Part shown: positions 29,389-49,010 of the stretch, one piece after another | How positions within the stretch are numbered: position 1 is the stretch's first letter | How the letters are laid out: every line of letters starts with the position of its first letter | Assembly: GCA_036002925.1 (NCBI GenBank) | Contig: DASYSU010000256.1 | Location: 5,216-69,215, forward strand | From: Gemmatimonadaceae bacterium | GTDB lineage: Bacteria > Gemmatimonadota > Gemmatimonadetes > Gemmatimonadales > Gemmatimonadaceae | Direction of reading: 5' to 3' | Length of the DNA: 64,000 bases | Notes under the pieces: generated by a model | What the model was told of the DNA's origin: nothing | The model's database searches: none | What the model saw: the letters and a program-made list of their open reading frames with translations, nothing else | Translations under genes and position numbers: made by a program

Positions 29389-29398
29389 GCCAGGCGAC

Positions 29399-29962: not shown

Positions 29963-29968
29963 GCGCGA

Positions 29969-30949
29969 ATGCCGAGCACGCACCACACGCTCGACGCCCC
30001 GGACGAGGCTCCTCGTCTCGACGTCCTCGTCGCCACACACCTCGACATCTCGCGGAATCAAGCCGCGACGCTCATCGCCGAAGGTCACGTTCTCGTTGCT
30101 GGCCGCCGAGAAAAGGCGAGCTACCGTGCGCGCGCGGGCGAACGAGTCATGATCGAGGTCCCACCAGTGCCGGGTCGCGAGGTTTTGGGTGAGGACATCC
30201 CGCTCAACGTGGTCTACGAAGACGACGACGTGTTGGTCGTCGACAAGCCGGCGGGAATGGTCGTCCACCCCGCGCCCGGCAACTGGTCCGGGACCCTGGT
30301 CAATGCGCTAAAGGGCAGGGGCGCATCACTTTCCGAGGCCACGGATGAAGGCCGCGAGGGGATCGTCCACCGTCTGGACAAGGAAACATCTGGCCTCCTG
30401 CTGGTCGCGAAAACCGACCGCGCACATCGGCGACTTGGCGCGGCATTGCAGGCTCGCGAGATCGTGCGACGCTACGCGGTGTTGTCGTGGGGACATCTCA
30501 CCGAAGAGCGGGTCACGGTCGAAAAGCCGATTGCACGCGATCCGCGAGACCGAAAGCGCATGGCAGTCGTCAGTAGTGGACGGCCGGCGAGGACTGACCT
30601 CACTCGGCTCGCGCGCTTCGACTCCGCCGATCTGCTTCGGGCTCATCTCTTTACGGGACGCACGCATCAGATCCGAGTACATCTCGCCTCGATCGGACAT
30701 CCGGTCGTGGGCGACGACACGTACGGCGGTGGTGGCGGCCGCAAGCTGATGGGGCTCCCGCCGCGCCGACACTTTCTGCACGCGGCGTGGTTGATCTTCC
30801 GTCATCCGGTGACTGGAGAACCGATCGATCTCCGCTCGCCGCTGCCGGAAGAGCTGCATCGCGCGATCGTCGTCGCCGCTGGTCCCGATGTCCCCGTCGC
30901 TGACACCAACCCGCTCGAGTTCTTTGGCTTCTACCGCGTCGATACCTGA
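29969..30949 (+). CDS. rluD: RluA-family 23S rRNA pseudouridine synthase (RluD-like)
   Basis: N-terminal S4 domain. Catalytic HRLDKETSGLLLVAKT. GRTHQIRVH motif. Confidence 0.9.
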   Translation: MPSTHHTLDAPDEAPRLDVLVATHLDISRNQAATLIAEGHVLVAGRREKASYRARAGERVMIEVPPVPGREVLGEDIPLNVVYEDDDVLVVDKPAGMVVHPAPGNWSGTLVNALKGRGASLSEATDEGREGIVHRLDKETSGLLLVAKTDRAHRRLGAALQAREIVRRYAVLSWGHLTEERVTVEKPIARDPRDRKRMAVVSSGRPARTDLTRLARFDSADLLRAHLFTGRTHQIRVHLASIGHPVVGDDTYGGGGGRKLMGLPPRRHFLHAAWLIFRHPVTGEPIDLRSPLPEELHRAIVVAAGPDVPVADTNPLEFFGFYRVDT

Positions 30950-31364
30950 AGCGACTCTCGCTCCCACGCTGCTGTTTCGCGTGGGGGGATCGACGTACGG
31001 GTGCGACATCGACGCCACACAAGAAGTCATTCCGCTCCGCCGCATGACGCGTGTTCCCGGCGCGCCGGCCTACGTGCGTGGGTTGATCAACATGCGCGGA
31101 ACGATCGTGACCGTGCTCGATCTCGGGATGCGACTCGATCCGTCGAGCGCGCCGATCGCCGATGGGGGATCGATTCTGCTGCTGCGCTATCGGGATCGAA
31201 TGGTGGGAATCGTTGTCGAGGAAGTAGTCGATTTGCGCGCGCTCGAGATCGAAGACGGTGACGCCGGCGCGGGGTCGATCGTGCGCGGGATGGCAACGTT
31301 GGATGACGCAACAGTCGTCGTGCTCGATCTCGACGCACTGATCAAGCAGGTTCTGCACTCTTAG
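30888..31364 (+). CDS. cheW: CheW-like coupling protein 1
   Basis: LLFRVGGSTYGCDIDATQEVIPLRRMTRVPGAPAYVRGLINMRGTIVTVLDLG is a typical CheW fold signature. The start is uncertain (ATG 30888 or TTG 30924). Either one overlaps the rluD 3' end. Confidence 0.8.
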   Translation: MSPSLTPTRSSSLASTASIPEATLAPTLLFRVGGSTYGCDIDATQEVIPLRRMTRVPGAPAYVRGLINMRGTIVTVLDLGMRLDPSSAPIADGGSILLLRYRDRMVGIVVEEVVDLRALEIEDGDAGAGSIVRGMATLDDATVVVLDLDALIKQVLHS

Positions 31365-31375
31365 GGAGGCGTTAC

Positions 31376-31738
31376 TTGAGCCACACCGTTCTTATCTGCG
31401 ACGACGCGATCTTCATGCGCACCATGGTCGGCGACATTCTCACGCAAGCGGGATTCGAGATCGTGGGGGAGGCCGAGACGGGGTTGCAAGCCGTCGAGAA
31501 ATATCAGCAACTCAAGCCCGACTTGGTGACGATGGACATCGTCATGCCAGACATGGGCGGCATCGACGCCGTGCGCGAGATCTGCAAGCAGGATCCGCAA
31601 GCAAAGATCTTGATGTGCAGCGCGATGGGCCAGCAGGCGCTCGTCGTCGAGGCGATTCAAGCCGGCGCGAAGGATTTCGTCGTCAAACCGTTTCAACCGA
31701 GTCGCGTGCTCGAAGCCGTGCAGCGCGTGTTAGGCTGA
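31376..31738 (+). CDS. cheY: CheY single-domain response regulator
   Basis: DD pair (LICDDA), phospho-Asp (VTMDIVMPDMGG), Ser/Thr (MCSAMG) and Lys (VVKPF) are all present. Confidence 0.9.
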   Translation: MSHTVLICDDAIFMRTMVGDILTQAGFEIVGEAETGLQAVEKYQQLKPDLVTMDIVMPDMGGIDAVREICKQDPQAKILMCSAMGQQALVVEAIQAGAKDFVVKPFQPSRVLEAVQRVLG

Positions 31739-31757
31739 GCGCTGCACACGCGTCGTC

Positions 31758-33686
31758 GTGGATAACGCCCAGTACGCGGAGCTCTTTCTCACCGAGAGCC
31801 GAGAGCACATCGCCGGGGTCAATAAGGCGTTGCTCGAGCTCGAGCGCGATGCGACCGGACCGGGTGCGTCCGCCGCGGTCGCGTCGATCTTTCGTGGCGT
31901 TCACACCATCAAAGGCATGGGCGCGACGATGGGGTACGCCATCGTCGCCGAACTAGCGCACGAGCTGGAGACAGTGCTCGATCGCATCCGTCGCGCCGAT
32001 TTGGCGATCAACGTCGCGATCATGGACGTGCTGTTTCGCGCAACCGATGTCCTCGAGAAGGCCGTAGAAGCGGCTGTCGCCGGCCGCGACGGCGAGGTCG
32101 TCGCCACCGAGCTCGTGACGACGCTGCACTCCCTTGGCGCATCGGGGCCGAGGCGTTCGAGTGGCGGATGGACGATTCCGGCGCCCTCCGGTGCCGGCAC
32201 CTTGGTGCGCATCCGATTGGCGCCCGACACGCCGCTGCGCGGAGTCCGCGCGTTCATCATCATCAAGGCATTGGGTGCGCTCGGTGAGGTGACGAACACC
32301 GAACCGCCGATCGAACAAATCCAAGCCGACGGCTTCGACACCGACTTCGCGGTTCGCGTCGTGAGCACGTCACCGGCGACCGAAATCGAGAGCGTGATTC
32401 GTAAGGCCGGCGACGTCGTCTTCGTGCGCGTCAGCGAGCCGCAGGCCGCCCCGCCGCGGCGCTCGGCGCCCGTCACCATTGAGCCTGCCGCTGCGCCGAC
32501 GTCCGCGCCAGCCGCCGACACCCGATCGGTTGTCGGACAAGCGCGGCATGTCCGCATCGATGTGCGGCGCCTCGACACGTTGATGAATCTCATCGGAGAG
32601 TTGTTGATCGCGCGCGGACGTCTGACGCAGCTCGCCGGCGAGCTTGGTGATCTCACGCTCGAGGAGACGGTGACGCAATCGTCACGGCTCATCGGCGAGC
32701 TGCGCGACGAGATCACGGCGAGCCGCATGGTGCCGGTCTCGCATGTCTTCGATCGATTCCCGCGCGTGGTGCGCGACGCGGCGCGAGCGGTCGGCAAGCA
32801 GATCGATTTCGTCGTCGACGGAAAGGGGATCGAGCTCGATCGGTCGATGCTCGATGAGATTGGCGACTCGATCGTGCATCTGTTGCGCAACGCGGTCGAT
32901 CACGGAATCGAAGCCCCAGAGGCCCGCACTGCCGCGGGGAAATCACCCACCGGCCGGCTGGTCTTGAGCGCGGCGCGCGATCGCTCGGCCGTGGTGATCA
33001 AGGTGAGCGACGACGGGAAGGGCATCGATCGCGAACGGGTGCTCGCGCGCGCCAAGCGCGATGGGCTCGTCGACGCGAATCGCAACGATCTGACCGAAGA
33101 CGAGTTGCTCCGCCTGCTCGCCCGCCCGGGCTTTTCGACCGCCGAGAAAGTGACCGACCTATCCGGTCGCGGCGTTGGCGTCGACGCCGTGTACACGCGC
33201 GTGCGCGCACTCGGCGGCGCGATGGACATTCGATCCGTGCCCGGTCAGGGCACGACGATGATCCTACGTCTGCCGCTGACGCTTGCGATCGTCCGCGCAC
33301 TTCTCGTCCGCGTGGCCGACGAGATCTACGCGATTCCGCTGGCGCACGTGAGCGAAACGATCGAGCTCGAGTCCGAGATTCTGCGGACCGTGAAAGGTCG
33401 CGAGGTGTTGTTGGCGCGCAACGAAGTGCTTCCGCTCATGCGGCTGCGCGATCTCGTCGGCCTGCCGGCGTATCAACCGCCGAGCGAAATCGCGCTGGAA
33501 CACGTCGTGGTGATCGACCTCGGCGATCGTCGAGCGGGGCTCGTCATCGACGAGCTCACGGGGCAGGAAGAAATTGTGGTCAAACAATACGACGCGGTTC
33601 GTGAAGGCTTGCCGTTCTTCGGGGGCGCCACGCTCCTCAGCGACGGCAGCCCATCGCTCATCGTCGACGTCAGCAGTCTCCTCTGA
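31758..33686 (+). CDS. cheA: Chemotaxis histidine kinase CheA
   Basis: HPt with FRGVHTIKGMG. Dimerisation domain. HATPase N/G boxes (HLLRNAVDHGIE, DDGKGID, GRGVGVD). C-terminal CheW-like P5 domain. Confidence 0.92.
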   Translation: MDNAQYAELFLTESREHIAGVNKALLELERDATGPGASAAVASIFRGVHTIKGMGATMGYAIVAELAHELETVLDRIRRADLAINVAIMDVLFRATDVLEKAVEAAVAGRDGEVVATELVTTLHSLGASGPRRSSGGWTIPAPSGAGTLVRIRLAPDTPLRGVRAFIIIKALGALGEVTNTEPPIEQIQADGFDTDFAVRVVSTSPATEIESVIRKAGDVVFVRVSEPQAAPPRRSAPVTIEPAAAPTSAPAADTRSVVGQARHVRIDVRRLDTLMNLIGELLIARGRLTQLAGELGDLTLEETVTQSSRLIGELRDEITASRMVPVSHVFDRFPRVVRDAARAVGKQIDFVVDGKGIELDRSMLDEIGDSIVHLLRNAVDHGIEAPEARTAAGKSPTGRLVLSAARDRSAVVIKVSDDGKGIDRERVLARAKRDGLVDANRNDLTEDELLRLLARPGFSTAEKVTDLSGRGVGVDAVYTRVRALGGAMDIRSVPGQGTTMILRLPLTLAIVRALLVRVADEIYAIPLAHVSETIELESEILRTVKGREVLLARNEVLPLMRLRDLVGLPAYQPPSEIALEHVVVIDLGDRRAGLVIDELTGQEEIVVKQYDAVREGLPFFGGATLLSDGSPSLIVDVSSLL

Positions 33687-33688
33687 GG

Positions 33689-34312
33689 ATGCTCATGGAA
33701 GATCTCCGTTCGCTGAAGGCCATCCAACTGGACGCACTGCGCGAAGTTGCGAATATCGGCGCGGGTCACGCCGCCACGGCGCTGTCGCAGATGGTCGGCG
33801 AAACCATCATGATCAGCGTGCCGACGATCAACATCGCGCGGCTCGAGGATGTGCCACCGCAAGTCGGCGAGCCCGATCAACCTGTCGCGGCGGTGCTCAT
33901 GCACATGCTCGGCGATCTGACCGGACGAACGCTGCTCGTGTTTCCGCGCCGCACGGCGGTCCGTCTGGCCGAGCTGCTGCTGCATCGCCCGAGCCCGGCG
34001 GACACGTTCTCCGAAATGCAGCAGTCGGCGATCAAGGAAGCGGGAAACATTCTCAGCTCGGCCTACATGAACGCCCTCAGCGACTTCATGGGCATGATGT
34101 TGTTACCATCGCCGCCCAGCCTCGCGATCGACATGTCGACCGCGGTGCTGACGACGGCGTACCTCCAATTCGGCAGCGACAAGGATTATGTCTTCTGCGT
34201 CGAGAGCGAGTTTCGTCTGAGCGACATCGGCGAGAAACTGTCCGGTTATTTCCTGCTCCTTCCCGACGCCGCGTCGCTGCAAGCCATCCTCAAGGCCGTT
34301 CGCGTAGCCTGA
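33689..34312 (+). CDS. cheC: CheC-type CheY-P phosphatase
   Basis: Two copies of the E-x2-N-x22-P active-site motif are present (LREVANIGAGHAATALSQMVGETIMISVP and IKEAGNILSSAYMNALSDFMGMMLLPSPP). Confidence 0.8.
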   Translation: MLMEDLRSLKAIQLDALREVANIGAGHAATALSQMVGETIMISVPTINIARLEDVPPQVGEPDQPVAAVLMHMLGDLTGRTLLVFPRRTAVRLAELLLHRPSPADTFSEMQQSAIKEAGNILSSAYMNALSDFMGMMLLPSPPSLAIDMSTAVLTTAYLQFGSDKDYVFCVESEFRLSDIGEKLSGYFLLLPDAASLQAILKAVRVA

Positions 34313-34315
34313 GCC

Positions 34316-37003
34316 ATGGTTCTCACGTCCGAGCGTGACCGCGACGTACTTCGGTCGTTCGCCCGCCGGATCGATCCGTCGGACGCCGGGGCGCACAACA
34401 ACCTCGGCGTCTTGTATTACAACAAGGGATTGTACGAGGAAGCGGTCAGTGCGCTGATGAAGGCGCTCGAGCTCGACGGAAAAATGCAGGTCGCGCGCCG
34501 CAACCTCGAGATCGCGTACTTCAATACTGGCTATTACGATACTCGAATACCCGAGCTCCGCGAACGTCTGCGCTCGCGTCCCGAAGACCGTGACGCGCGG
34601 TGGGAGCTTGGTCGCACGTTCGCGTTGCTGGGACAACACGAGGAAGCGGCTGAAGAGTTCCGCGTCCTGTTGCAGCACAACGCGAATGACGTCGGCGCGC
34701 TTCTCCAGCTCGCGCTTGCCGAAAAGCAGGCCGGCGACATGGAACGGGCCCAATCGTGCGTCGAACAGGCGCTCGTGCTCGACCCCGAGAGCTCGCTTCT
34801 TCAGTTCACGCTTGGTGAGGTGCTCTATCATCGCGGATTGAACGAGGAAGCGCTGCGTGCGCTCGAGCGCGCGATCGAGCTCAATCCGGAGAACCATGAC
34901 GCACTCTATCTCATGGGTTTCGTCCTCGGCGACATCGGACGACATGAGGAGGCGCAGGCAGTCACCCGCCGCGCGATCAAGCTCAATCCGACGCTCTCAC
35001 GCGCGCACGCCAACTTAGCGATCGATCAACAACGCGCGGCGCAGACGAACGGCAACGAGGCGTCGGCCAAGAAAGAGCTGCAGGTGTCGGGCGAAGGACA
35101 GCTCGCGCGCTACAACCTGGGCCTCGCCTTTCGCAGCAAGGCGTATTACGCCGAGGCGTTGCGTGAATACCGTGCCGCGCTCGAGCGTGGCGAAGAGCGC
35201 GATCTCGTTTTACAAGCGATGGCCGAGGTCCACCTGCTCATGCGTCAGCCCAAGGAAGCGCTGGCGCTCTATGATGAACTGCTGCAGCGCCAATGTGATA
35301 GCCCAAAGCTATGGAACGAGCGCGGCGTGTCGCTGCACCAGCAGGGTCGGTTCGCCGACGCGGAGGAGAGCTATCGCCGGGCGTTGCAATCGGAGCCCGA
35401 GTACGCGATCGCGCACAACAACCTGGGCGTCGCCTTGTACCACCGTGGCGCCGTCGACGATGCGGTTACGGCATTTCGAACCGCGCTCCATGAGGAGCCC
35501 GGATTCGCGAAGGCGCGACTGAATCTGGCGCTGCTGCTGAGCCGCGCGAAGCGTTTTCCAGCGGCGCTCGAAGCCTACCGACTCGTGCTGAGCTCCGCGC
35601 CGGAGCACCCGGTGGCGTGGAATGGCATCGGTGTCGTGCTCGCCGAGCTGCGCAAGTTCGAGGACGCGCGCAACGCATTCGCCCGGGCGATTCAAGCACG
35701 GCCGGAGTTCGCCGAAGCGCACTACAACATGAGCTTCACGCTCTCCAACCTCGGCGATTTCGAGGGCGCGTTGCGCGAAACCAAACGCGCGCTCGAGCTC
35801 GACCCGTACTATGTCGCGCAGAAGTTCGAGCTCGCCATGGACGTCGAGTACGAGGACCCGGATCTGTCGATCCAGCCGGATCTGGGGAGCGAGCGCGCGG
35901 CCGACGCCGCGATCGCCGACTTCGCGTTCGACCCAAAAACGCTCGACTCGCTGTTCACCGAGCTGACGCCGGTCGTCGAGCCGCCGCCTCGGAACCGCAA
36001 CACCGACTCGTCGCCCTATGCAATGGCGACGGATTACCTGTCGAAGGGATTGTTCGATCGCGCGTCGGCGGAGATCAACCGCGCGATGGCGCGAGGCAAT
36101 GCACGCGCTGACGGTCTCGCCATGCTGGGCGACGTGTTCGCGAAGCAGGGATTGTTCGGCGAAGCGTTGGAGCGATACCGCGACGCACTGCAGATGCAGC
36201 CCGACCTTCGTGCCGCGTCGATCGGCGAGGCGTGGTCGTTGGTCCGTCTCGGACGCGCGACCGAAGCACGGCCGCTCGCCGAGCGCCTGGCGAAGCAACA
36301 TCCGGACGACGTCGATCTGCTGATGCTTGTCGCGACGGCGTGCGCGGATTCCGGCGATCCGGCCGCCGCGCTCTCGGCCCTCGAGAAGGCGCGTCGCGTC
36401 GCGCCGATGCGGGCCGATATTCACCAGCGCATCGGCGACATCGCCGGCTCCTTGGGCGACAGCGACGGCGCGGTCTCCGCGTACCGGCATGCGCTGCAGT
36501 TGGATTCGGACTTCGCCGTAGTGCGATTCCAGTTGGCTCGACTGCTCCAGTCGAAGGGACACGATCGCGTCGCCGAAGAGGAACTCGTCGCGGCGCTCGA
36601 CGCAGTCCCCACATATGCGGAGGCGACGCTCGAGCTCGCGACATTGCGCCGACGATTGGGTCGGCCCGCCGAGGCGCTCACGCTGCTCGTCGATCTGCTC
36701 CATCGCGATCCCTATCACTTCGACGCCCTCATCTCGCTCGGCGAGACGCTGCTGGCGCTCGGACGAAAGCGCGACGCCGTCCACGCATTCACGCGTGTGC
36801 TCCGGTTCGATCCGTCGCACATCGGCGCGTTGTTTTACGAGGGCGCGATCCTCGTCGAGCAGCATCGCTATCGCGACGCGATCGCTCGCTGGGAGAAAGT
36901 CGTCGAGCTCGGACCAGCGACTGAATACGCGCGCCGCGCCCGACGCGACATGCGCACCGCGGCTGATCTGCAGCGCATCCTCTCGCCGCGAGCGAGGCAC
37001 TAG
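34316..37003 (+). CDS. Large tetratricopeptide-repeat protein (895 aa)
   Basis: TPR consensus (W/L-G-Y-A-F-A-P spacing) recurs throughout. Examples are AHNNLGVLYYNKGLYEEAVSALMKALELD and AHNNLGVALYHRGAVDDAVTAFRTAL. No TM, HAMP or MCP signalling motif was seen. Confidence 0.75.
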   Translation: MVLTSERDRDVLRSFARRIDPSDAGAHNNLGVLYYNKGLYEEAVSALMKALELDGKMQVARRNLEIAYFNTGYYDTRIPELRERLRSRPEDRDARWELGRTFALLGQHEEAAEEFRVLLQHNANDVGALLQLALAEKQAGDMERAQSCVEQALVLDPESSLLQFTLGEVLYHRGLNEEALRALERAIELNPENHDALYLMGFVLGDIGRHEEAQAVTRRAIKLNPTLSRAHANLAIDQQRAAQTNGNEASAKKELQVSGEGQLARYNLGLAFRSKAYYAEALREYRAALERGEERDLVLQAMAEVHLLMRQPKEALALYDELLQRQCDSPKLWNERGVSLHQQGRFADAEESYRRALQSEPEYAIAHNNLGVALYHRGAVDDAVTAFRTALHEEPGFAKARLNLALLLSRAKRFPAALEAYRLVLSSAPEHPVAWNGIGVVLAELRKFEDARNAFARAIQARPEFAEAHYNMSFTLSNLGDFEGALRETKRALELDPYYVAQKFELAMDVEYEDPDLSIQPDLGSERAADAAIADFAFDPKTLDSLFTELTPVVEPPPRNRNTDSSPYAMATDYLSKGLFDRASAEINRAMARGNARADGLAMLGDVFAKQGLFGEALERYRDALQMQPDLRAASIGEAWSLVRLGRATEARPLAERLAKQHPDDVDLLMLVATACADSGDPAAALSALEKARRVAPMRADIHQRIGDIAGSLGDSDGAVSAYRHALQLDSDFAVVRFQLARLLQSKGHDRVAEEELVAALDAVPTYAEATLELATLRRRLGRPAEALTLLVDLLHRDPYHFDALISLGETLLALGRKRDAVHAFTRVLRFDPSHIGALFYEGAILVEQHRYRDAIARWEKVVELGPATEYARRARRDMRTAADLQRILSPRARH

Positions 37004-37005
37004 CG

Positions 37006-38049
37006 ATGGCGATCGAGGGACCGCTCCGCGAGCTCGGCATCCACGACGTCTTTCAGCTCCTCGACCTGAGCCGAAAGACAGGGATGCTGCGCGTCTCCTC
37101 GGAGCTCCGCGAGGACGAGGGGCTCGTCTGCTTCGACGGGGGGCGCGTCGTCCAAGCAACGATTCGCAGCAAGACGCTTCCGATGGAGATGGTGCTGCTC
37201 CAGGCCGGCCGAATTACCGAGTCGGATCTCGAGCGCGCGCGGGCGAAGCGGCAAAACGGGCGGGCCGGACGCGAGATCGTGCATCTGCTCGTCGACGTCG
37301 GCGCGATCACGCACAAGGAGCTCGAGCGCCAGCTCCGACTGCAGCTCGAGAGCGTCGTGTTCGAGCTCATGTCGTGGCGCGAAGGGTTCTTCTCGTTCGA
37401 GGAACGCACGCGCGATGAGATGCCGGGCGAGACGTTGATCACCGTCTCGACCGAGTCGCTGCTCATGGAAGGCGCCCGGCGCATCGACGAATGGTCGCGC
37501 ATCGCGGACATCGTTCCGAATGTCGCGGCGGTTCCGGAGCTCGCCCCGATCGACTCGGCGCGCGACGGAGCCATGCTCGATCTCTTGCCGCACGAGTGGC
37601 AGGTGTTGACGATGATCGACAGCGAGCGCGATCTGCGTGAGATCGCCGCCGTGCTGGCCCGCGATGAATTCGAGATCGCGAAGATCGCATACGGACTCGC
37701 GACGACCGGCATCATCACGATGCGGTCGCCAAAGCGACCGACGCCGGAGCTCGATCGCAGCGGCGTCGAATCGCGCCTCGAGGCGGCGCGCGCGTACACG
37801 ACCGCCGGGCGTCACGCCGAAGCGCTCGACGAGCTCCGGCGCGCCGTTCAGGAAGATCCGCTGACGTCGCGCGCGCATCTCGATCTCGCGTTCGCCGCGG
37901 CGCGCACCGGCGATCTCTCCGCGGCGCGCGCGAGTTGGCAGCACTTTCTCCGCTTGACGCCTCGCGATCCAGCGGCGCCGCTCGTGCACAGCGCGCTCGG
38001 CGCGTTGGCCGAGCTCGAACGAGTGCTCGAGGTGCACGCCAATGGCTGA
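37006..38049 (+). CDS. PATAN (DUF4388) domain protein with C-terminal TPRs, paralog 1
   Basis: N-terminal GPLRELGIHDVFQLLDLSRKTGMLRVSS...GRVVQA is the DUF4388/PATAN signature. SLLMEGARRIDEW mid-region. TPR-like C-terminus. Confidence 0.65.
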   Translation: MAIEGPLRELGIHDVFQLLDLSRKTGMLRVSSELREDEGLVCFDGGRVVQATIRSKTLPMEMVLLQAGRITESDLERARAKRQNGRAGREIVHLLVDVGAITHKELERQLRLQLESVVFELMSWREGFFSFEERTRDEMPGETLITVSTESLLMEGARRIDEWSRIADIVPNVAAVPELAPIDSARDGAMLDLLPHEWQVLTMIDSERDLREIAAVLARDEFEIAKIAYGLATTGIITMRSPKRPTPELDRSGVESRLEAARAYTTAGRHAEALDELRRAVQEDPLTSRAHLDLAFAAARTGDLSAARASWQHFLRLTPRDPAAPLVHSALGALAELERVLEVHANG

Positions 38050-39671: not shown

Positions 39672-39689
39672 CGCCTCCCGCATCGTCCT

Positions 39690-42241: not shown

Positions 42242-42255
42242 GGAGGGCCATCTAG

Positions 42256-43875
42256 ATGGCCATTCGCGGCAGCCTGAAAGAGGCCAGCCTTCCCGACGTG
42301 CTTCAACTCCTCGCCATGGGGAAGAAGACCGGCTGCCTGAGTGTCACGCATCGCTCGAACTTCGGGAACATCTACTTCGAGCGCGGGCGCATTTGTTATG
42401 CGTCGATCGTCAATCGGCGCGACCGACTCGGTGACGTGCTCGTGAAGAGTGGTGCGCTCGCGCAATCGCAGCTGGATGCGGCGATTGCGTTGCAGGATCG
42501 CCGGCGCGACAAACGGTTGGGGGAGTTGTTGGTCGAAATGGGCGCGCTGCGGATCGAGGAGCTGCACGACGCGATCGAGGTGCAGATTCGCGAGGCGGTC
42601 TACTACCTGTTTACGTGGAACCAAGGGACGTTCAACTTCGAAGCGGACGTCGCTCCCGATCAGCTCGACCACGTCGTGTCGATCAATCCCGAGTCGTTGC
42701 TGCTCGAAGGTGCGCGCCGCGTCGACGAGTGGGGCCTGATCGAGAAGAAGATTCCCACGTTCGATCTGATTTTCGAGGCGGATCGCCCGCATGCGTCGGT
42801 GAGCGACGTCGAATTGACGAACGAGCAACGCATCGTGCTCGATCTGGTCGACGGGGCGCGCGACGTGCAAGCGATCGTCGACCAGTCGGGGCTGGTCGAG
42901 TTCGAGGTCGGGAAGGCGCTGTATGGACTGGTCACCACCGGATTCATCCACCGGATCGGCAAGAGCGCCGGTCCGCCGCAGGCGTTGTCCGAAGGCCGGG
43001 CGGAAGAGCATCGCAATCTGGGAATCGCGTTCTACAAAACGGGCATGCTCGACGAGTCGCTCCGCGAATTTCGACGCGTACTCGAGCTGCGTGGAAACGA
43101 CGCGTCGGCGCGATTCTACGTCGGGCTGGTGTTGTCGCGTCAAGGTCAATGGGACGAAGCCGTGGCGACGTTCGCCGATGCCGCCGCCCAACCCGGGGCC
43201 AAGCCGGCGATCTTTCACAATCTCGCATACGCGCTCGAGCAGCAGCGTCGATACGACGAGGCGCGCATCGCGCTCGACGAGGCGATTCGGCGGGGCGGCT
43301 CGAAGAATCCACGCATGCAGACGTCTGCCGGCATCATCTGTCTCCTTGCCGGAGATCTCGAGGGCGCCGACGCAAAACTCTCCGCGGCGCGAGCACTGTT
43401 CGCCGGCGGGGCACCGACCGCGGCGTGGTTTCACTACATGGCACTGACCGCCGCCCTTCTCGGAGACTCGACGCGCGCCATCGAGACGCTCAACCAAGGT
43501 GTTGCAGCGCATCCGCACGCGGCCGCGCTGCTCAACAACCTCGCGGTGGTCTTGGAGCGAGCCGGCCGCTACGACGAAGCGCGGGCTGCCGCGGACCGAG
43601 GCATCCATGAGGATCCGACGCTGCCGCAATTGCACAAGAATTTCGGCGATCTACAATACCGAGCGACGCAGTACGACGACGCGCTGGAGTCGTATCTCCG
43701 CGCCACCAAGGCGCATCCCGAGTTGGGCAGCGACGTGTATCTCAAGCTCGGGAACATTCGCCTGCGCCGTCGCGAGCGCGACGAGGCCGTGCGGTGCTGG
43801 GAGCGTGCGCTGGAGCTCGACCCGGACAACGCCATCGTGCGCACGAATCTCGAGTCGGTTCGTCAGGTCTTCTGA
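42256..43875 (+). CDS. PATAN (DUF4388) domain protein with C-terminal TPRs, paralog 2
   Basis: GSLKEASLPDVLQLLAMGKKTGCLSVT...GRICYA and SLLLEGARRVDEW parallel the 37006-38049 protein. The C-terminal half is TPR. A good AGGAGG sits 9 nt upstream. Confidence 0.65.
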   Translation: MAIRGSLKEASLPDVLQLLAMGKKTGCLSVTHRSNFGNIYFERGRICYASIVNRRDRLGDVLVKSGALAQSQLDAAIALQDRRRDKRLGELLVEMGALRIEELHDAIEVQIREAVYYLFTWNQGTFNFEADVAPDQLDHVVSINPESLLLEGARRVDEWGLIEKKIPTFDLIFEADRPHASVSDVELTNEQRIVLDLVDGARDVQAIVDQSGLVEFEVGKALYGLVTTGFIHRIGKSAGPPQALSEGRAEEHRNLGIAFYKTGMLDESLREFRRVLELRGNDASARFYVGLVLSRQGQWDEAVATFADAAAQPGAKPAIFHNLAYALEQQRRYDEARIALDEAIRRGGSKNPRMQTSAGIICLLAGDLEGADAKLSAARALFAGGAPTAAWFHYMALTAALLGDSTRAIETLNQGVAAHPHAAALLNNLAVVLERAGRYDEARAAADRGIHEDPTLPQLHKNFGDLQYRATQYDDALESYLRATKAHPELGSDVYLKLGNIRLRRRERDEAVRCWERALELDPDNAIVRTNLESVRQVF

Positions 43876-44690
43876 TGTCCGAGTCGCAGCTCGGAGACTT
43901 CCAGGTCCTCACGCGCAAGATCACGCTCGAGCGCGGGTTCGGGTGCGCCAGTTATAAAGAGAAGTGTCTTCGCCGGCGGATCGCGGTGCGGATGCGCGCC
44001 CGGGGCGTTCACACGTACGACGATTACGCGCGAATCCTCGATGCCGACGCGGGTGAATACGAGCGTCTGCTCGACGTTCTGACGATCAACGTCACCAAGC
44101 TCTTTCGGAATTGGGACGTCTACGCGTCGATCGCCGCGAACGTCGTCCCCGCGTTGTGGCTTCGAACGACGCCCTCGATCCGTGTGTGGAGCGCCGGCTG
44201 CTCGTCGGGCCAGGAACCGTACTCGCTCGCCATTCTGTTCCACCGCTATGTGGCGACGAACGGCATGCTTCCCCAAATCGGGCGGGTTCAGGTGCTCGGC
44301 ACGGATATCGACCGACTTTCCTTGGCCGCCGCGGAGCGCGGACAATTCGAGTCAGCCGATTTCTCGGATACACCCGATGAGCTGCGTAGCCGATACTTCT
44401 CCGCAGCACCGCCGTTCGTCGTCTCCGCGGGCGTTCGCAGCCTCGTGCGGTTCGAGCGCCGCGACCTGCTCGGTGATCCCGCACCGCCGGGAAAGTTCGA
44501 GCTGATTGTCTGCCGCAACGTCTTGATTTACTTCGACCGCGAAACCCAAGAACAATTGTTCGAGAAATTCTATCAGGCCCTCGCGCCCGACGGCTTTCTG
44601 GTCCTCGGCAAGGTCGAGACGCTGTTGGGCCCCATCCGCCCGCGGTTCGCGCCGGTTGACTCACGCGAGCGAATCTTTCGCCGTCTATGA
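43875..44690 (+). CDS. cheR: Chemotaxis protein methyltransferase CheR
   Basis: SYKEKCLRRRIAVRM N-domain. SAM-binding IRVWSAGCSSGQEPYSLAI. CRNVLIYFD. I chose the MSESQL start (TGATG junction). The ORF-track start is 43794. Confidence 0.88.
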   Translation: MSESQLGDFQVLTRKITLERGFGCASYKEKCLRRRIAVRMRARGVHTYDDYARILDADAGEYERLLDVLTINVTKLFRNWDVYASIAANVVPALWLRTTPSIRVWSAGCSSGQEPYSLAILFHRYVATNGMLPQIGRVQVLGTDIDRLSLAAAERGQFESADFSDTPDELRSRYFSAAPPFVVSAGVRSLVRFERRDLLGDPAPPGKFELIVCRNVLIYFDRETQEQLFEKFYQALAPDGFLVLGKVETLLGPIRPRFAPVDSRERIFRRL

Positions 44691-45178
44691 GGGACACCTC
44701 CACCGAGGTTCTCGTCAAAGTCGCCGATTACGCGGTGGCCGCGAGCGGCACGATCGCCACGATCGGCCTCGGCTCGTGCGTCGCGATCATCCTGTATGAC
44801 GGCGTGGCACACGTCGGCGGTATGGCGCACGTGCTGCTGCCGAACGAGGCGATGTCGCGAGATCGCTCGAACCCCGCGAAATTTCCCGCGTCGGCCGTTC
44901 CGCTGCTGCTCGACGAGATGCGTCTGCTCGGGGCGACGCGCGAACGCGTGCGGGCGAAGATCGTTGGCGGCGCGAGCATGTTCGCCAATCTCATTCCGGC
45001 CGGCGGCATCAACATCGGTGAACGCAACATCACCGCCGTTCGCGGTGCGCTGTCCGAGGCGAAGGTGCCGATTGTCGCCGAAGATGTTGGCAGCGACCAT
45101 GGTCGGAGCGTGTTCCTGTTCCTCGATGACGGCCGCGTCGAAGTGCGGTCGCTGAAGAAGGGTTCGCGTGTCCTCTGA
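44687..45178 (+). CDS. cheD: Chemoreceptor glutamine deamidase CheD
   Basis: GLGSCVAIILYD (catalytic Cys), GMAHVLLP (His) and GERNI motifs. Confidence 0.85.
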   Translation: MRDTSTEVLVKVADYAVAASGTIATIGLGSCVAIILYDGVAHVGGMAHVLLPNEAMSRDRSNPAKFPASAVPLLLDEMRLLGATRERVRAKIVGGASMFANLIPAGGINIGERNITAVRGALSEAKVPIVAEDVGSDHGRSVFLFLDDGRVEVRSLKKGSRVL

Positions 45179-46247
45179 CAAGCTGCGCGTTCTCGTCGTC
45201 GACGACAGTGCGTTCATGCGGAGACTCACGTCACAGATCATCGACGACTCGGGGGAGTTCGCCGTCGCCGGCACGGCACGCAATGGATACGACGCGCTGA
45301 AACAGATTCACGAGCTCAATCCCGACATCGTCACGCTCGATGTGGACATGCCGGAGCTCGACGGATTGAGCGCGCTCGGCTACATCATGAGCGAGACGCC
45401 GCGACCGGTGGTGATGCTGAGCGCCGGCACCACGAATGGCGGACACACGGCCACGTTGCGGGCACTCGAGTTGGGCGCCGTCGACTTCGTGCTCAAGCCG
45501 TCGGGGGCGATCAGTCTGGATCTGCGAACGATTTCAGATCGGTTGCTCTCGGCGCTTCGCGGCGCGGCGACCGCGAACATGAGTGGACTGCGCATGCTGG
45601 CGCGCCCGGCGCCCGAGGGATTCGGACACAAGGTCGATCCCGTGTCGCGCTCCGATCGCGCGACGCGCGCCGTCGTCGTGGCGTCGTCAACGGGCGGTCC
45701 ACGCGCACTCTCGGCGATCGTTCCGCAACTATCGCGCGGACTCGCGGCTGCGGTGTTGGTCGTGCAACACATGCCGGCCGGATTCACCAAGAGCCTGGCG
45801 CAGCGACTCGATACCGTCAGCCCCATCCGAATCGACGAGGCGGAGGACGGAGAGCCCGTCGTGCATGGACGCGTGTATTTGGCGCCGGGTGGATTTCATA
45901 TGACCGTTCGCGACGACGGCGAGGGCCCGGCGATCGGGCTCGACAAGTCGGCCTCACTCTGGGGCGTGCGACCAGCTGCCGATCTCTTGTTTCGTTCCGC
46001 CGCGGCGGTGTTTGGCGCGTCGACGGTTGCGGTCGTTCTGACGGGGATGGGCCGCGACGGCGCCGAAGGAACACGCGCAGTCCGCGAGGCCGGTGGGCTT
46101 GCCATCATTCAGGACCGCGAGTCCGCGACGATCTACGGCATGCCCCAGGCGGCGATCCAGTGCGCGGGTGCCGACCGCGTCGCTCCGCTGCAAGACATCG
46201 GCGGCGTCATCGCGGAATTCGTCGACGTGGTTGCCCATGTTCCGTGA
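45168..46247 (+). CDS. cheB: Chemotaxis response regulator protein-glutamate methylesterase CheB
   Basis: Receiver domain (VVDDSAFMR, TLDVDMPELDG). Esterase triad contexts ASSTGGPRAL, VQHMPAGFT and GMGRDGAEG. Confidence 0.92.
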   Translation: MSSDKLRVLVVDDSAFMRRLTSQIIDDSGEFAVAGTARNGYDALKQIHELNPDIVTLDVDMPELDGLSALGYIMSETPRPVVMLSAGTTNGGHTATLRALELGAVDFVLKPSGAISLDLRTISDRLLSALRGAATANMSGLRMLARPAPEGFGHKVDPVSRSDRATRAVVVASSTGGPRALSAIVPQLSRGLAAAVLVVQHMPAGFTKSLAQRLDTVSPIRIDEAEDGEPVVHGRVYLAPGGFHMTVRDDGEGPAIGLDKSASLWGVRPAADLLFRSAAAVFGASTVAVVLTGMGRDGAEGTRAVREAGGLAIIQDRESATIYGMPQAAIQCAGADRVAPLQDIGGVIAEFVDVVAHVP

Positions 46248-46686
46248 CGGTGCCGCGCGGTTTCTCGTCTTTCGCATAGGGGCCGAGCGTTTCGGCGTCG
46301 AGCTTCCCGCGGTCGACGAAGTCATTGATGCACCCAGCGTTCAGGCGGTTCCCGACGCACCGGCAACAGTGCTCGGGGTGTCGACGATTCGCGGAGAGTT
46401 GATCACGCTGTACGACCCACGGCCGCTGCTTCATGTCGAGGGTCGACTCGACGGCGCCGCGTTGTTGTTTGTTCGAGACGACCGGCGAGTCGGTGTGGCG
46501 ATCGAAGACGTGTACGACGCGATCAAGATCGAGGACGGCGATTTGCTCAAGGCGCCAGGCGGCGGCGCCGACGCGTCCGACGGGATTCTCGTCGGCTTGG
46601 TTCGTCGTGCAGGAGAGTTGATCGGGATACTCGATGCCAACGCGCTGCTCGATGCGGCGATCGCCGGCGACGGAGAGAGGAAATGA
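46237..46686 (+). CDS. cheW: CheW-like coupling protein 2
   Basis: FLVFRIGAERFGVELPAVDEVIDAPSVQAVPDAPATVLGVSTIRGELITLYD. The start is set at MFRDG. The ORF-track start is 46093. Confidence 0.8.
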   Translation: MFRDGAARFLVFRIGAERFGVELPAVDEVIDAPSVQAVPDAPATVLGVSTIRGELITLYDPRPLLHVEGRLDGAALLFVRDDRRVGVAIEDVYDAIKIEDGDLLKAPGGGADASDGILVGLVRRAGELIGILDANALLDAAIAGDGERK

Positions 46687-47168
46687 AGAAGGACGTCGTG
46701 CAGCTTGTGATCTTTCGTCTCGGAGCCGACCTGTTCGCGGCCGACGTGTTCGACGTCGAGCGCGTGCTGCGGTACGCGCAGCCGAACACGGTGCCGGGCG
46801 TCCCGCGCTGGATCGCGGGACTGATGCCATATCGAGACACTGTCATCCCGGTCGTCGACATGCGTCGGCGGATCGAGCTGCCCGACGCGACGATCACGCC
46901 CGAGACGCGCCTCCTCGTGTTTTTCACCACCAATGGCTGGATCGGCGCGATCGTCGATTCGGTGTCGGAGGTCGCGGTGCTTCCGGCGGCGAATGTGACG
47001 CCGCCCCCAGCGTTGTTCCACGGGCTGCCCGCGCAGTTCATGCGCGGCATCGCCAAAGTCGGGGAACACGTCGTCGTCGTACTCGACGTCGATCTGGTGT
47101 TGTCGAGCAGCGAACGCCTTGCGTTCGAGCAAAGCGTCGAAGCACTGGAGCCGGCTGTACGTGCCTGA
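46683..47168 (+). CDS. cheW: CheW-like coupling protein 3
   Basis: LVIFRLGADLFAADVFDVERVLRYAQPNTVPGVPRWIAGLMPYRDTVIPVVDMRRR. ATGA overlap with the upstream cheW. Confidence 0.8.
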   Translation: MKKDVVQLVIFRLGADLFAADVFDVERVLRYAQPNTVPGVPRWIAGLMPYRDTVIPVVDMRRRIELPDATITPETRLLVFFTTNGWIGAIVDSVSEVAVLPAANVTPPPALFHGLPAQFMRGIAKVGEHVVVVLDVDLVLSSSERLAFEQSVEALEPAVRA

Positions 47169-48012
47169 AAGCGTCCCCGTAACGCTGCGCGCCCGGCATG
47201 ATGCCCTCGGCGGGCGGCTGGATGCGCCTGATGCCGCGAGAGAGCTCGACGAACTGAAGGCGGAGATCGGCGCGCTCTTCAAGGCGGTGGAGCTGGAGCT
47301 GAGCCAACTGAATGCGCTGCGCGCCGATGTGCTGCAACTCGTCGACCGATGGAAGGCGACGAAGGCCACGCAGCCGTCGCTCGCACCCCAGTTTGTCGCT
47401 GAGCGGCCCGTGGTCCATGCGGATCACATCGGTGCGTCGACCTTCGTCGAGAAAGGGTGGAGCAAGATTTCAGTCGGCGATTACGAGGGCGCCGAACAGG
47501 TGCTTCGCAAGGCGCTGGAGCTCGCGCCCAACGACGTGGCGGCCGCGTCGATGTTGGGCTGGGCGGAAATGCTGCAAGAGAAGTTCGATGACGCGCTCCT
47601 CAACTTTCAGAAGGTGCTCGCCCGCGAGCCCCAGAATGCGTTGGCCCGTATCAACGTCGGGTATATTTGTCTCAAGAAGCGGATTTTTGGTGAGGCGATC
47701 GAGCATTTGTCGCGGGCGATTCGTCTCGACAACGACAAGAAGGCGACGCTGTACGCGCACTTCTATCTCGGGTTGGTGTATCTCGAGCGCGACATGTTCG
47801 AGGACGCGCAGACATTCTTTCAGAAAACGCTCAACCTCGGCCCGAACTTGATCGAGGCGTACTACGAGCTCGGTCGCGCGTACTGGCTCAATGGCCGCCG
47901 AGAACATGCAATGGCCACGTGGAAGGCCGGCTTCGAGGCGAACAAGTTCAATCCGTGGGGAAAACGCTGCGCAGAAGTGCTCACGACGGTGGAGGCAGGC
48001 GGCTCGCCTTAG
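47119..48012 (+). CDS. Coiled-coil plus TPR protein
   Basis: N-terminal coiled coil (ELDELKAEIGALFKAVELELSQLNALRADV), then four to five TPRs. The start is uncertain (TTG 47119 or GTG 47161). Confidence 0.65.
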   Translation: MRSSKASKHWSRLYVPESVPVTLRARHDALGGRLDAPDAARELDELKAEIGALFKAVELELSQLNALRADVLQLVDRWKATKATQPSLAPQFVAERPVVHADHIGASTFVEKGWSKISVGDYEGAEQVLRKALELAPNDVAAASMLGWAEMLQEKFDDALLNFQKVLAREPQNALARINVGYICLKKRIFGEAIEHLSRAIRLDNDKKATLYAHFYLGLVYLERDMFEDAQTFFQKTLNLGPNLIEAYYELGRAYWLNGRREHAMATWKAGFEANKFNPWGKRCAEVLTTVEAGGSP

Positions 48013-49010
48013 GCGCGGTTCTGTCGCGCGCGCGCCGCGTGTTGTCGGTTGCGGCGCTGATTCCGCTGGCTCTGACCGCCGCCGCAGCGCAAGAAGAAGC
48101 TCCCGAGCGGCTCGACCGCGGCCGATTCACGGCCGTCTATTTTCCCAGCGACCAAACGCTGACGCAGTCATTGTTGGATTACTCGGTCCGCAACGACACG
48201 TTTCCCGGATTGCCGCGGCCGCGCCAGCACGTCTGGCTGGCGATCGCGCCCAACCGCAAGCGATTCCGTGAGTGGATCGGTCCGGGCGCGCCGGAGTGGG
48301 GCGCGGCGATCACGTTTCCCGAATCGCGTCGCATCGTGATGCAGGGGCGATTCGCCGGAGCCGACGCCGGCGATCCGCGCGAAGTGTTGCGTCATGAGCT
48401 CGCGCACTTGGCGCTGCACGAGTACTTGGGCGACGCACCGCCACGCTGGTTCGACGAAGGCTACGCGAGCTACGCTGCGCACGAATGGCGGAGAGACGAC
48501 GCGTTGGCGGCCAACGTCGCGTTGGCATTGAAGGGAACGCCGACCCTCGACGAGCTAGATGCCGAATTCAACGCCGGCTCGACGACGGCGCAGAACGCGT
48601 ACGCGCTCGCGTATCGTGCGGTGGTGGAGCTCGCGTCGCTCGACACGGCGTCCGGTCTCGCGCGGTTTCTCAGCGCCTGGAAGGATACGGGCTCGATGGA
48701 CCGCGCCTTCCGCGCGACCTTCGGCATTACGCTGGTCGGATTCGAGCAGCGATGGCAACAGCGCACGCGCCGTCGCTACGGAGCGCTCGCGCTCGTTGGC
48801 GATTTTGCCATCGGGGGACTGGTGTTGCTGGTGATCGTGTTCCCGTTGTACGTGACCAGGCGCCAACGAAATCGCCAACGATTGGCGGCGCTGCTTGCGG
48901 CAGACGAGGCCGCCGAGCGGGCGGCGCGACGCAGCGCGATCGAGGCACTCCTGCGCGGGGATGATGAGACCGATTTGCGTGGCGGAACGCCCGAGATTCC
49001 TCCGTCTTAA
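47919..49010 (+). CDS. Peptidase-MA-like (HExxH) protein with signal peptide and C-terminal TM anchor
   Basis: REVLRHELAHLALHEYLGDAPPRWFDEGYASYAA has the same HExxH...W..EGYA.Y signature as the 975-aa protein. Signal-like RARRVLSVAALIPLALTAAAAQ. C-terminal TM LVGDFAIGGLVLLVIVFPLYV. The start is ambiguous (47919, 47955 or later). Confidence 0.55.
   Translation: MEGRLRGEQVQSVGKTLRRSAHDGGGRRLALGAVLSRARRVLSVAALIPLALTAAAAQEEAPERLDRGRFTAVYFPSDQTLTQSLLDYSVRNDTFPGLPRPRQHVWLAIAPNRKRFREWIGPGAPEWGAAITFPESRRIVMQGRFAGADAGDPREVLRHELAHLALHEYLGDAPPRWFDEGYASYAAHEWRRDDALAANVALALKGTPTLDELDAEFNAGSTTAQNAYALAYRAVVELASLDTASGLARFLSAWKDTGSMDRAFRATFGITLVGFEQRWQQRTRRRYGALALVGDFAIGGLVLLVIVFPLYVTRRQRNRQRLAALLAADEAAERAARRSAIEALLRGDDETDLRGGTPEIPPS

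Follow-up and report, generated by a model that had tools for sequence, protein, structure and literature searches.

The window analysed here is a 64,000-nucleotide stretch of a Gemmatimonadaceae genome (GenBank assembly GCA_036002925.1, contig DASYSU010000256.1; G+C content 64%). At positions 30888-49010 it contains 19 consecutive plus-strand genes, recognised by listing and translating its open reading frames (ORFs). These genes bring together a chemosensory (Che) pathway, the small GTPase MglA with its Roadblock, PATAN and TPR companions, and an AAA+ ATPase built from two DnaA-type modules. Comparison with related genomes shows that the locus is conserved across Gemmatimonadota; we read it as a signalling and polarity operon organised in layers: a kernel, a set of core additions, and an outer layer of che genes. 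In 5' to 3' order the genes are as follows.

30888..31364, plus strand: CheW1, coupling protein (Pfam CheW, 6.9e-29)
31376..31738, plus strand: CheY, single-domain receiver (Pfam Response_reg, 1.8e-31)
31758..33686, plus strand: CheA histidine kinase with the classical P1-P5 architecture (Pfam Hpt, P2, H-kinase_dim, HATPase_c, CheW)
33689..34312, plus strand: CheC, CheY-phosphate phosphatase (Pfam CheC, 7.3e-22)
34316..37003, plus strand: 895-aa all-TPR scaffold, core member (Pfam TPR families, down to 8e-87)
37006..38049, plus strand: PATAN (DUF4388)-TPR protein 1 (Pfam DUF4388, 6.7e-29, and TPR)
38042..38851, plus strand: TPR protein with a probable C-terminal Roadblock/LC7 domain (Pfam TPR_16, 2.2e-15; Robl_LC7, 4.3e-4)
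38848..39195, plus strand: stand-alone Roadblock/LC7 protein with an ATGA start (Pfam Robl_LC7, 1.8e-7; Roadblock proteins of the PDB, 2.4e-6)
39192..39671, plus strand: MglB homologue, a Roadblock-fold predicted GTPase-activating protein (phmmer, 3.5e-10)
39690..40313, plus strand: MglA, small Ras-like GTPase (1.9e-74 to Myxococcus xanthus MglA, full length)
40310..42241, plus strand: tandem DnaA-domain-III AAA+ ATPase, 643 aa (Pfam Bac_DnaA twice, 2.1e-104)
42256..43875, plus strand: PATAN-TPR protein 2 (Pfam DUF4388, 5.7e-38, and TPR)
43875..44690, plus strand: CheR methyltransferase (Pfam CheR, 2.5e-47; CheR_N, 2.1e-9)
44687..45178, plus strand: CheD receptor deamidase (Pfam CheD, 3.1e-29)
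45168..46247, plus strand: CheB methylesterase with an N-terminal receiver (Pfam CheB_methylest, 2.4e-61; Response_reg, 2.1e-21)
46237..46686, plus strand: CheW2 (Pfam CheW, 5.1e-21)
46683..47168, plus strand: CheW3 (Pfam CheW, 6.3e-28)
47161..48012, plus strand: TPR protein of about 283-297 aa with an N-terminal coiled-coil-like stretch, core member (Pfam TPR_2, 1.6e-24)
48039..49010, plus strand: Peptidase_MA_2-like HExxH protein (Pfam Peptidase_MA_2, 5.1e-12; longest ORF from 47919)

The che genes thus form two blocks on either side of eight non-che genes. Every domain assignment made in a first-pass annotation of this DNA was confirmed by the Pfam search and sharpened by matches to solved structures, and the same annotation's description of about 19 co-directional genes with tiny gaps or overlaps also proved accurate. 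When the candidate start nearest the upstream stop is taken for each gene, all junctions in the run fall between -14 and +31 nt. ATGA overlaps occur at five of them (at the starts of the Roadblock, MglB, tandem ATPase, CheD and CheW3 genes), cheR shares a TGATG overlap with the upstream stop, and other GTG or ATG starts reach 8-14 nt into the preceding gene. A scan of positions 29800-49700 found two promoter-like sites inside the run, against 2.0 expected in shuffled sequence, and 15 terminator-like sites, against 13.2 expected. The che and mgl genes are therefore probably one tightly coupled, co-transcribed unit, as had been proposed, given the tight spacing and the lack of any excess of internal signals. 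This co-transcription is inferred, and so are all contacts between proteins, the direction in which information flows and the output for the cell considered below.

Conservation and layering of the operon

The tandem DnaA-type protein served as the anchor in a scan of one genome per species, which yielded 197 relatives. The best 80 of these were examined by mapping 22 window proteins onto their loci with tblastn. All of these 80 are from Gemmatimonadota, mostly metagenome-assembled genomes of Gemmatimonadaceae, with 55-91% identity to the tandem ATPase, and among them the complete gene order was seen wherever the contig was long enough. Metagenomic relatives in which the anchor is only 29-38% identical (and RluD about 50%) share this layout and its chromosomal site, and their junctions still overlap or are separated by 0-5 nt. 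On the 5' side of these distant loci cheW-cheY-cheA-cheC lies upstream of the TPR scaffold gene, and on the 3' side cheR-cheD, cheR-cheB or cheR-cheD-cheB follows the second PATAN-TPR gene. Retention of the layout at such low identity means that the interleaved arrangement is ancient rather than a recent accident. The possibility that the synteny is unique to this genome was accordingly discarded, and the question of whether the order is conserved is answered by an arrangement found in more than 80 genomes across Gemmatimonadota, with the tandem ATPase diverging to about 30% identity.

The two che blocks behave alike in evolution. Both junctions are covered in 37 loci, of which 32 contain the two blocks, five contain neither and none contains just one; this absence of mixed loci argues that the two blocks act as one functional unit. 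The che-less loci make up a single clade nested among che-bearing ones, and one che-bearing member lies inside that clade, so that the che genes were lost secondarily, probably more than once. Since the che-less clade is nested and the deep branches carry the W-Y-A-C and R-D(-B) blocks, the split itself is ancient. The first-pass annotation had pictured a supra-operon split by an embedded module. That picture has to be turned around, with the module as the constant part and the che genes as a variable outer layer that was lost wholly or partly in several lineages. Splitting of a che operon by insertion was rejected on the same evidence, namely the deep branches that hold both blocks in place and the nested position of the che-less clade.

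What always remains in che-less loci is an 11-gene core: the CheY-like receiver, the 895-aa TPR protein, PATAN-TPR protein 1, the TPR-Roadblock protein, the stand-alone Roadblock protein, MglB, MglA, the tandem ATPase, PATAN-TPR protein 2, the TPR protein of 297 aa and the HExxH protein. The receiver of che-less loci remains beside the TPR scaffold with its DD/D/T/K set intact. Its identity to the window CheY is 82-98% where CheA is present and 67-74% where it is not, and the phospho-acceptor residues are kept both ways. At one distant locus, L081, the receiver and CheC have been kept and CheA, CheW, CheR, CheB and CheD are gone. The retention of the receiver beside the core, together with this CheC without CheA, argues that phosphorylation of the receiver matters to the core itself. 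CheW2 and CheW3 are limited to the window's own group.

An even smaller set was found in two loci, L090 (7564-13539) and L091 (7470-12824), at the same site downstream of rluD. These have a four-gene kernel consisting of an MglB-like Roadblock protein, the tandem ATPase, a PATAN-TPR protein and the HExxH protein, and they lack MglA, the receiver and the large TPR scaffold. The deepest conserved kernel is therefore the DnaA-derived ATPase with three partners, and not the GTPase. The pairing in these loci of a Roadblock protein with an AAA+ ATPase, without any GTPase, was unexpected.

The tandem ATPase and the other proteins of the core

Both halves of the tandem ATPase have the full DnaA domain III fold, with Walker A and B, sensor I, box VII and sensor II. 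Domains I, II and IV are missing, and neither the C-terminal DnaA domain (Bac_DnaA_C) nor the N-terminal domain is matched. The N-terminal half aligns with domain III of Bacillus subtilis DnaA at 6e-53 (about 50% identity), as compared to 6e-8 with Hda. Across 45 divergent members, down to about 30% identity, Walker A, Walker B and sensor II are kept in both halves. In the N-terminal half the Walker A lysine is present in 45/45, the Walker B aspartate in 44/45 and the sensor II arginine in 40/45; in the C-terminal half 38 of the 45 have the Walker A lysine and 39 the box VII arginine. This pattern of conservation makes both modules look nucleotide-competent. An AlphaFold2 model (pLDDT 88.7, with a predicted TM-score, pTM, of 0.50 and hence no confident placement of the domains) has two AAA+ modules separated by a helical linker of about 100 aa (residues 260-361), and the top Foldseek match is DnaA domain III (8bv3, target-normalised TM-score 0.94).

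In public databases these proteins are entered as "chromosomal replication initiator protein DnaA" or "DnaA/Hda family", which is almost certainly the wrong name for them. The tandem ATPase exceeds the cut-off of the DnaA model TIGR00362 for the sole reason that the ATPase module occurs twice, and it scores 171.5 bits against the Hda model TIGR03420, whose cut-off is 194.8. A search of the protein for a clamp-binding (QLxLF-like) motif found none. An Hda-like identity was set aside on these grounds (the greater closeness to DnaA, the TIGR03420 score under the cut-off, and the clamp motif that was not found), and a role as replication initiator is very unlikely.

Related architectures of DnaA-type ATPases were encountered in two other settings, and they point to signalling rather than to replication. 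At locus L089 (9249-11465) the 738-aa protein P0209 joins a tandem DnaA-ATPase to a C-terminal receiver. Its neighbours are a hybrid PAS histidine kinase, a receiver-HD protein, two Hpt proteins and two single receivers, which make this a phosphorelay cluster without replication genes. At locus L088 (GCA_030620115.1, JAUXFG010000024.1, 4309-15923) MshEN, the N-domain of the PilB/GspE pilus ATPases, is joined to DnaA-type ATPase domains in three proteins (983, 398 and 1990 aa), and a 436-aa MshEN-only protein lies among them. These genes belong to a type IV pilus cluster with PilD, PilB, PilT, PilC, a PilS-like kinase and a sigma-54 regulator; another lineage thus seems to have put DnaA-type AAA+ modules to use in the regulation of pili.

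The GTPase is a true MglA. It matches its M. xanthus counterpart over the full length and has the P-loop (GPGRSGKT), the switch-I arginine (in TDRTLFFDF) and the TxxGQ sequence that replaces DxxGQ (in YTVPGQ); it is 82-95% identical among Gemmatimonadaceae loci. The MglB homologue is weak in Pfam and matches M. xanthus MglB (6izw_B) over residues 11-126; the Roadblock fold, the MglB-specific similarity and the position of its gene directly upstream of mglA suggest that it is the GTPase-activating protein (GAP) of this MglA. The Roadblock domain of the TPR-Roadblock protein is less certain, with a Robl_LC7 score of 20.4 bits that is under the 23-bit Pfam cut-off. Its L087 orthologue likewise has a weak Robl_LC7 match, and comparison of the window protein with PDB sequences yielded generic TPR matches only. 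The 895-aa TPR scaffold was found in all core-bearing loci, and the TPR protein of about 283-297 aa is also found in che-less ones.

PATAN-TPR protein 2 may bring a second messenger into the system. In both PATAN-TPR proteins the PF14332 match covers about 160 residues of protein against a model of 122 positions, from which it follows that the PATAN domain has its helical insertion. In PATAN-TPR protein 2 this helical insert contains two strict MshE-type motifs, at residues 57-80 and 87-110 (nt 42424-42585), where the strict MshEN motif was defined as a tandem 24-residue pattern, RLGxx(L/V/I)(L/V/I)xxG(L/V/I)(L/V/I)xxxxLxxxLxxQ. The same protein scores 42.7 bits against NCBIfam NF053729 and so passes the curated cut-off of 38. 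At least one strict motif is present in most orthologues of PATAN-TPR protein 2, including those of the minimal kernel, and the motif is degenerate in PATAN-TPR protein 1. PATAN-TPR protein 2 thus probably binds cyclic di-GMP (c-di-GMP), and the helical insert of some PATAN domains is suggested to be an MshE-type c-di-GMP site. No paper calling PATAN inserts MshEN-like c-di-GMP sites was found in the searchable literature.

The last gene of the run encodes the sole membrane protein of the operon. Its hydropathy profile indicates a signal-peptide-like N-terminus, an outward-facing domain with the HExxH motif (HELAH), a single transmembrane helix towards the C-terminus and, on the cytoplasmic side, a tail of about 48 aa, which make it the obvious candidate for the membrane anchor of the system.

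The Che proteins, their receptors and the edges of the operon

By Pfam the Che pathway has the F-type architecture, with a CheA that contains P1 (Hpt), P3, P4 and P5 along with CheW and CheY. CheY has DD, D, T and K at the canonical positions, and its best solved relative is Thermotoga maritima CheY (2e-51). The best NCBIfam model for CheA is the haloarchaeal CheA_Halo and that for CheC is CheC_Thtogales (3.9e-51), and the Thermotoga model CheD_Thtga (1.6e-39) ranks second among the CheD models, all of these matches being below the equivalog cut-offs. CheA has neither a fused receiver nor multiple Hpt domains in the Pfam search, and a single Hpt domain without a fused receiver speaks against membership of the Tfp class and against an ACF architecture of the typical kind. 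Judged by these nearest solved or curated relatives, from Thermotoga and haloarchaea, the Che set is F1-like. The F1 class of Wuichet and Zhulin comprises the flagellar chemotaxis systems of Thermotoga, Bacillus and Archaea. The window shares with it the complement CheA, CheW, CheY, CheB, CheR, CheC and CheD, but differs in having its che genes in two blocks, three CheW proteins, and no receptor or flagellar gene nearby. Of the CheW proteins, CheW2 evolves fast (33-83% identity among loci), and CheW1 has an uncertain start (30888, 30924 or 30981), its longest ORF running over the end of rluD. We propose that CheY is the interface between the kinase and the core module.

CheR, CheB and CheD act on methyl-accepting chemotaxis proteins (MCPs), and the first-pass annotation, which had called the supra-operon receptor-less, noted no MCP signature in the run or anywhere in the window. 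That observation stands. No sizeable ORF of the window matched MCPsignal or HAMP in Pfam (E <= 0.01), and when the Tsr signalling domain and an MCP consensus were compared with all six frames of the window by tblastn, no match scored better than E = 2. In 93 related loci (1.54 Mb) the best match had an E value of only 0.69. These searches also rule out an MCP hidden in the TPR or PATAN proteins, and the locus thus encodes neither an MCPsignal input protein nor a substrate for CheR, CheB and CheD. The locus is receptor-less; the system need not be, since the relative Gemmatimonas phototrophica has at least three MCP genes scattered over its chromosome and unlinked to the cluster (supplement of PMC9862903).

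According to the same source, neither the Che system nor MglA need be the only one of its kind in a member of this phylum. G. phototrophica AP64 has a separate mglB-mglA (roadblock-mglA) pair at 1.5365-1.5377 Mb of NZ_CP011454.1, and at 1.8734-1.8891 Mb a shorter cluster whose listed genes are cheW, a response regulator, DUF4388, a "GTPase domain-containing protein" and cheB, with gaps in the list after the response regulator and before cheB. A second CheA is encoded elsewhere, and its transcript is among those that the authors report to rise together with flagellar genes (PMC9862903). This cluster was set aside as a direct model of the window operon, as its visible part is shorter and only related.

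On the left the operon has a functional rather than a structural boundary, as the tight plus-strand run extends upstream of cheW1 through rluD, two lspA genes, a dksA-like gene and ileS, with gaps just as small. On the right its limit is distinct, the last gene being followed by a gap of 518 nt, which contains a promoter-like site (49063-49091) and the following two features.

49194..49217, plus strand: G+C-rich terminator-like hairpin with a T-rich tail, the best-scoring terminator-like site in the scan and the probable 3' end of the transcription unit
49371..49444, plus strand: tRNA-Val(TAC), a boundary marker outside the system (Rfam tRNA, 75.8 bits; ARAGORN)

Beyond the gap come a pair of paralogous TPR genes and, on the other strand, a gene for a lipid kinase; the dcw cluster (mraW to murD) follows. 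The operon is thus flanked by yggS-divIVA-pnp-ileS-(dksA-like)-lspA-lspA-rluD at 23089-30949 and by mraW-ftsL-ftsI-murE-murF-mraY-murD at 54127-62875, and this placement is kept in all related loci examined. The yggS-to-rluD set is similar to the series of genes found after the dcw cluster in B. subtilis.

Several features of the surroundings deserve mention in their own right. The two lspA (signal peptidase II) genes are tandem paralogues (28819-29388 and 29399-29962), and the distant loci L081 and L090 have one lspA. The paralogous TPR genes after the gap (49529-51277 and 51299-53203) encode proteins of about 600 aa in which TPR is confined to the C-terminal half and the N-terminal stretch of about 230 aa has no assignment. 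A homologue of these proteins follows the operon in nearly all related loci, and the pair may belong to the system, though the hairpin and the tRNA gene intervene. Elsewhere in the window, minus-strand ORFs of 975 aa (12174-15101), 266 aa (3434-4234) and 306 aa (19583-20503) have no Pfam family (E <= 0.001) and a coding-like third-position G+C content.

Proposed information flow and alternative explanations

The gene content of the operon can be modelled as a pathway that leads from unlinked receptors through an F1-like Che system and CheY-phosphate to a polarity machine of MglA and the AAA+ ATPase, a reading that we hold with moderate confidence. In this model the kernel proteins (the tandem AAA+ ATPase, the MglB-like Roadblock protein, the putative c-di-GMP-binding PATAN-TPR protein and the bitopic HExxH protein) would form a cytoplasmic machine, to which most lineages would have added MglA, two more Roadblock proteins, a second PATAN-TPR protein, two TPR scaffolds and the CheY-like receiver. 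The outer layer would be the CheW-CheA-CheC block upstream of the core and the CheR-CheD-CheB-CheW-CheW block downstream of it. Methyl-accepting receptors encoded elsewhere would control CheA via the CheW proteins and would be the substrates on which CheR, CheB and CheD act in adaptation. CheA would phosphorylate CheY, and CheC would reset it. CheY-phosphate would dock on the TPR/PATAN/Roadblock scaffold or on the tandem ATPase, and this docking would shift the MglB-controlled GTP state or the location of MglA. MglA in turn would set the polarity of a polar machine, which might be the flagellum, type IV pili, or the site of growth or division. A second input, c-di-GMP, would enter by way of PATAN-TPR protein 2. 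We infer, in short, that the output of the Che pathway is a GTPase switch. An output from Che to the core gains indirect support from the retention of the receiver with the core and from the fusion of a receiver to the tandem ATPase elsewhere. Among sequence features, the conservation of the operon and the joint loss of the che blocks also appear to favour the pathway, as does the retention of CheC with the receiver in one lineage, and the Frz and cyanobacterial systems suggest it by analogy.

The closest precedent is the Frz chemosensory system of M. xanthus, which acts on MglA/MglB polarity (PMC3441718, PMC10329633). The two systems share a Che-type kinase pathway, CheR/CheB-type adaptation, the MglA GTPase and the MglB Roadblock GAP, along with receiver proteins as the interface, and the extra Roadblock proteins of the window can be compared with MglC. 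They differ in organisation, for in Myxococcus the genes for Frz, mglBA and the receiver-type partners are at separate loci, whereas those of the window are in one operon. In both Myxococcus and Bdellovibrio mglA is not near the genes of interaction partners (response regulators such as RomR), and the 2014 survey of Wuichet and Sogaard-Andersen found only occasional PATAN neighbours of mglA (PMC4316618). The window also has a plain CheA with CheC and CheD, in place of the FrzE-type CheA-CheY fusion, the FrzZ dual receiver and the FrzCD receptor, and no homologue of either RomR or RomX was recognised among the genes of the locus. Conversely, the Frz/Mgl system has no counterpart of the tandem ATPase, the PATAN-TPR proteins or the HExxH membrane protein.

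A second precedent comes from Synechocystis, where Che-like systems act via PATAN response regulators on the pilus motor (bioRxiv 10.1101/2021.06.11.447907). Like the Tax and Pix systems, in which PixG and PixE bind PilB1, the window has a Che-like pathway that is genetically linked to PATAN proteins, which in the cyanobacteria control the polarity of a motility machine. However, the PATAN domains of the window are fused to TPR rather than to a receiver, with the receiver supplied by a separate CheY; MglA/MglB and the AAA+ ATPase are present in addition, and the cluster contains no pilus genes and no receptor. The tandem ATPase itself has the fold and motifs of DnaA domain III in both halves, as in DnaA and Hda, but is set apart from these by its duplication, its linker of about 100 aa, the lack of domains I, II and IV, and its signalling and polarity context. 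Non-Che nucleoside triphosphatase (NTPase) genes embedded in a che operon are familiar from ParC/ParP of Vibrio and PpfA of Rhodobacter, positioning ATPases encoded inside che operons. Those are ParA-type, as opposed to the MglA and DnaA-type AAA+ proteins of the window, and the window module, unlike them, survives without che.

Several observations weigh against the pathway proposed above. The Che proteins look like components of the F1-like flagellar type, and CheY could therefore act on a flagellar switch instead of on MglA. The core occurs without che genes in one clade and the kernel occurs without MglA in L090 and L091, so that neither is essential to the machine, and in L038 the receiver is gone too. 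The region from yggS to dcw is syntenic as a whole in these genomes, and part of the conservation of gene order may therefore be inherited synteny. The promoter scan used a sigma-70-type consensus that may not apply to Gemmatimonadota. Finally, G. phototrophica carries a different variant, along with its separate mglBA pair and second CheA, and the picture across the phylum is not uniform.

Control might run in the reverse direction, with the che genes serving ordinary flagellar chemotaxis and the MglA/PATAN/TPR/AAA+ module acting as a polar landmark that places the chemosensory array, the flagellum, or both. The F1-like, flagellar character of the Che proteins would fit this arrangement, as would the classical P1-P5 CheA without a fused receiver, the presence of an NTPase gene within a che operon, an arrangement shared with known systems that position arrays, the single polar flagellum borne by cultured Gemmatimonas cells (PMC9862903), and a weak match of the HExxH protein to a flagellinolysin-type HExxH model (9.7e-5, far under the cut-off). 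We nevertheless consider it unlikely. The core and the receiver persist in lineages without all the other che genes, so that the job of the core is not limited to positioning a Che array, and both the retention of CheC with the receiver but without CheA in L081 and the fusion of a receiver to the tandem ATPase in L089 speak for phospho-signalling into the core. If, on the other hand, no functional coupling existed at all, two che blocks would have chanced to flank an unrelated operon in an ancestor and would have been kept there by inertia. The synteny of the whole region across the phylum and the loss of che genes from around a persisting core could be explained in this way. Yet the interleaved order and overlapping stop and start codons have been kept as identities dropped to about 30%, the two che blocks are always gained or lost together, the divergence of CheY tracks the presence of CheA, and the promoter and terminator scan gave no sign of separate transcription. 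The survival of an interleaved, overlapping arrangement for so long makes this the least likely of the explanations, and we judge it very improbable.

A connection to the cell cycle has also been weighed, in which the tandem ATPase would influence how replication starts or how the chromosome is organised, perhaps by forming mixed oligomers with DnaA, and would couple polarity, budding or division to replication, with the che genes as co-regulated passengers or environmental input. The halves of the ATPase are indeed far nearer to DnaA domain III than to Hda (6e-53 versus 6e-8), and the C-terminal half keeps a DnaA-like GKERTQEE segment after Walker B, which we take to be a motif that contacts single-stranded DNA. 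Gemmatimonas has been reported to bud, and the operon always lies between yggS-divIVA-pnp-ileS-lspA-rluD and mraW-ftsL-ftsI-mur. Against these points, the ATPase has neither the DNA-binding domain IV nor domain I, the search for a clamp-binding-like motif in it found none, relatives of it are fused to a receiver in a phosphorelay cluster, and DnaA-type ATPase domains are fused to MshEN in a type IV pilus cluster, which are contexts of signalling and motility. Furthermore, the operon is set off from the dcw cluster by the 518-nt gap with its tRNA gene, by the two TPR genes and by the gene on the opposite strand. A role of this kind is, in our judgement, quite unlikely.

A bolder version of the layered model would place the kernel at its centre. 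The kernel would be a previously unrecognised NTPase machine for polarity or positioning, onto which MglA/MglB were layered first and the Che pathway later, with CheY-phosphate and c-di-GMP converging on the DnaA-like ATPase throughout the phylum. We offer this only tentatively, as possible but somewhat less than probable when taken as a whole; that the kernel is a new kind of NTPase machine has by itself a reasonable chance of being correct. Che pathways, MglA/MglB and the PATAN-MglB neighbourhood are each known singly, the last of these from Makarova et al. 2006 as cited in PMC4316618. No description of the exact gene order was found in the searchable literature, consistent with the expectation of the first-pass annotation, nor of Che and Mgl in one operon, of a DnaA-derived tandem ATPase as their constant partner, or of the c-di-GMP motif in the PATAN insert. 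A search of the same literature for type IV pili or twitching in Gemmatimonadota found no useful report, and neither did one for MglA in Gemmatimonas.

Only in Myxococcus is it known in detail how a chemosensory pathway governs cell polarity by way of a Ras-like GTPase. There the components are dispersed, and decades of genetic work were needed to connect Frz with MglA. In the Gemmatimonadota operon the proposed wiring lies within one operon, and its gene list provides a parts list of candidate interaction partners. The natural variants, whether full, lacking single che genes, che-less, or reduced to the kernel without MglA, reveal which of the parts can be separated from one another. A further gain is the recognition of a tandem ATPase derived from DnaA, which databases label as an initiator and whose contexts point to signalling. 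For Gemmatimonadota, which are abundant in soil and whose cell biology is almost unexplored, the operon suggests a hard-wired link from chemical sensing to cell polarity.

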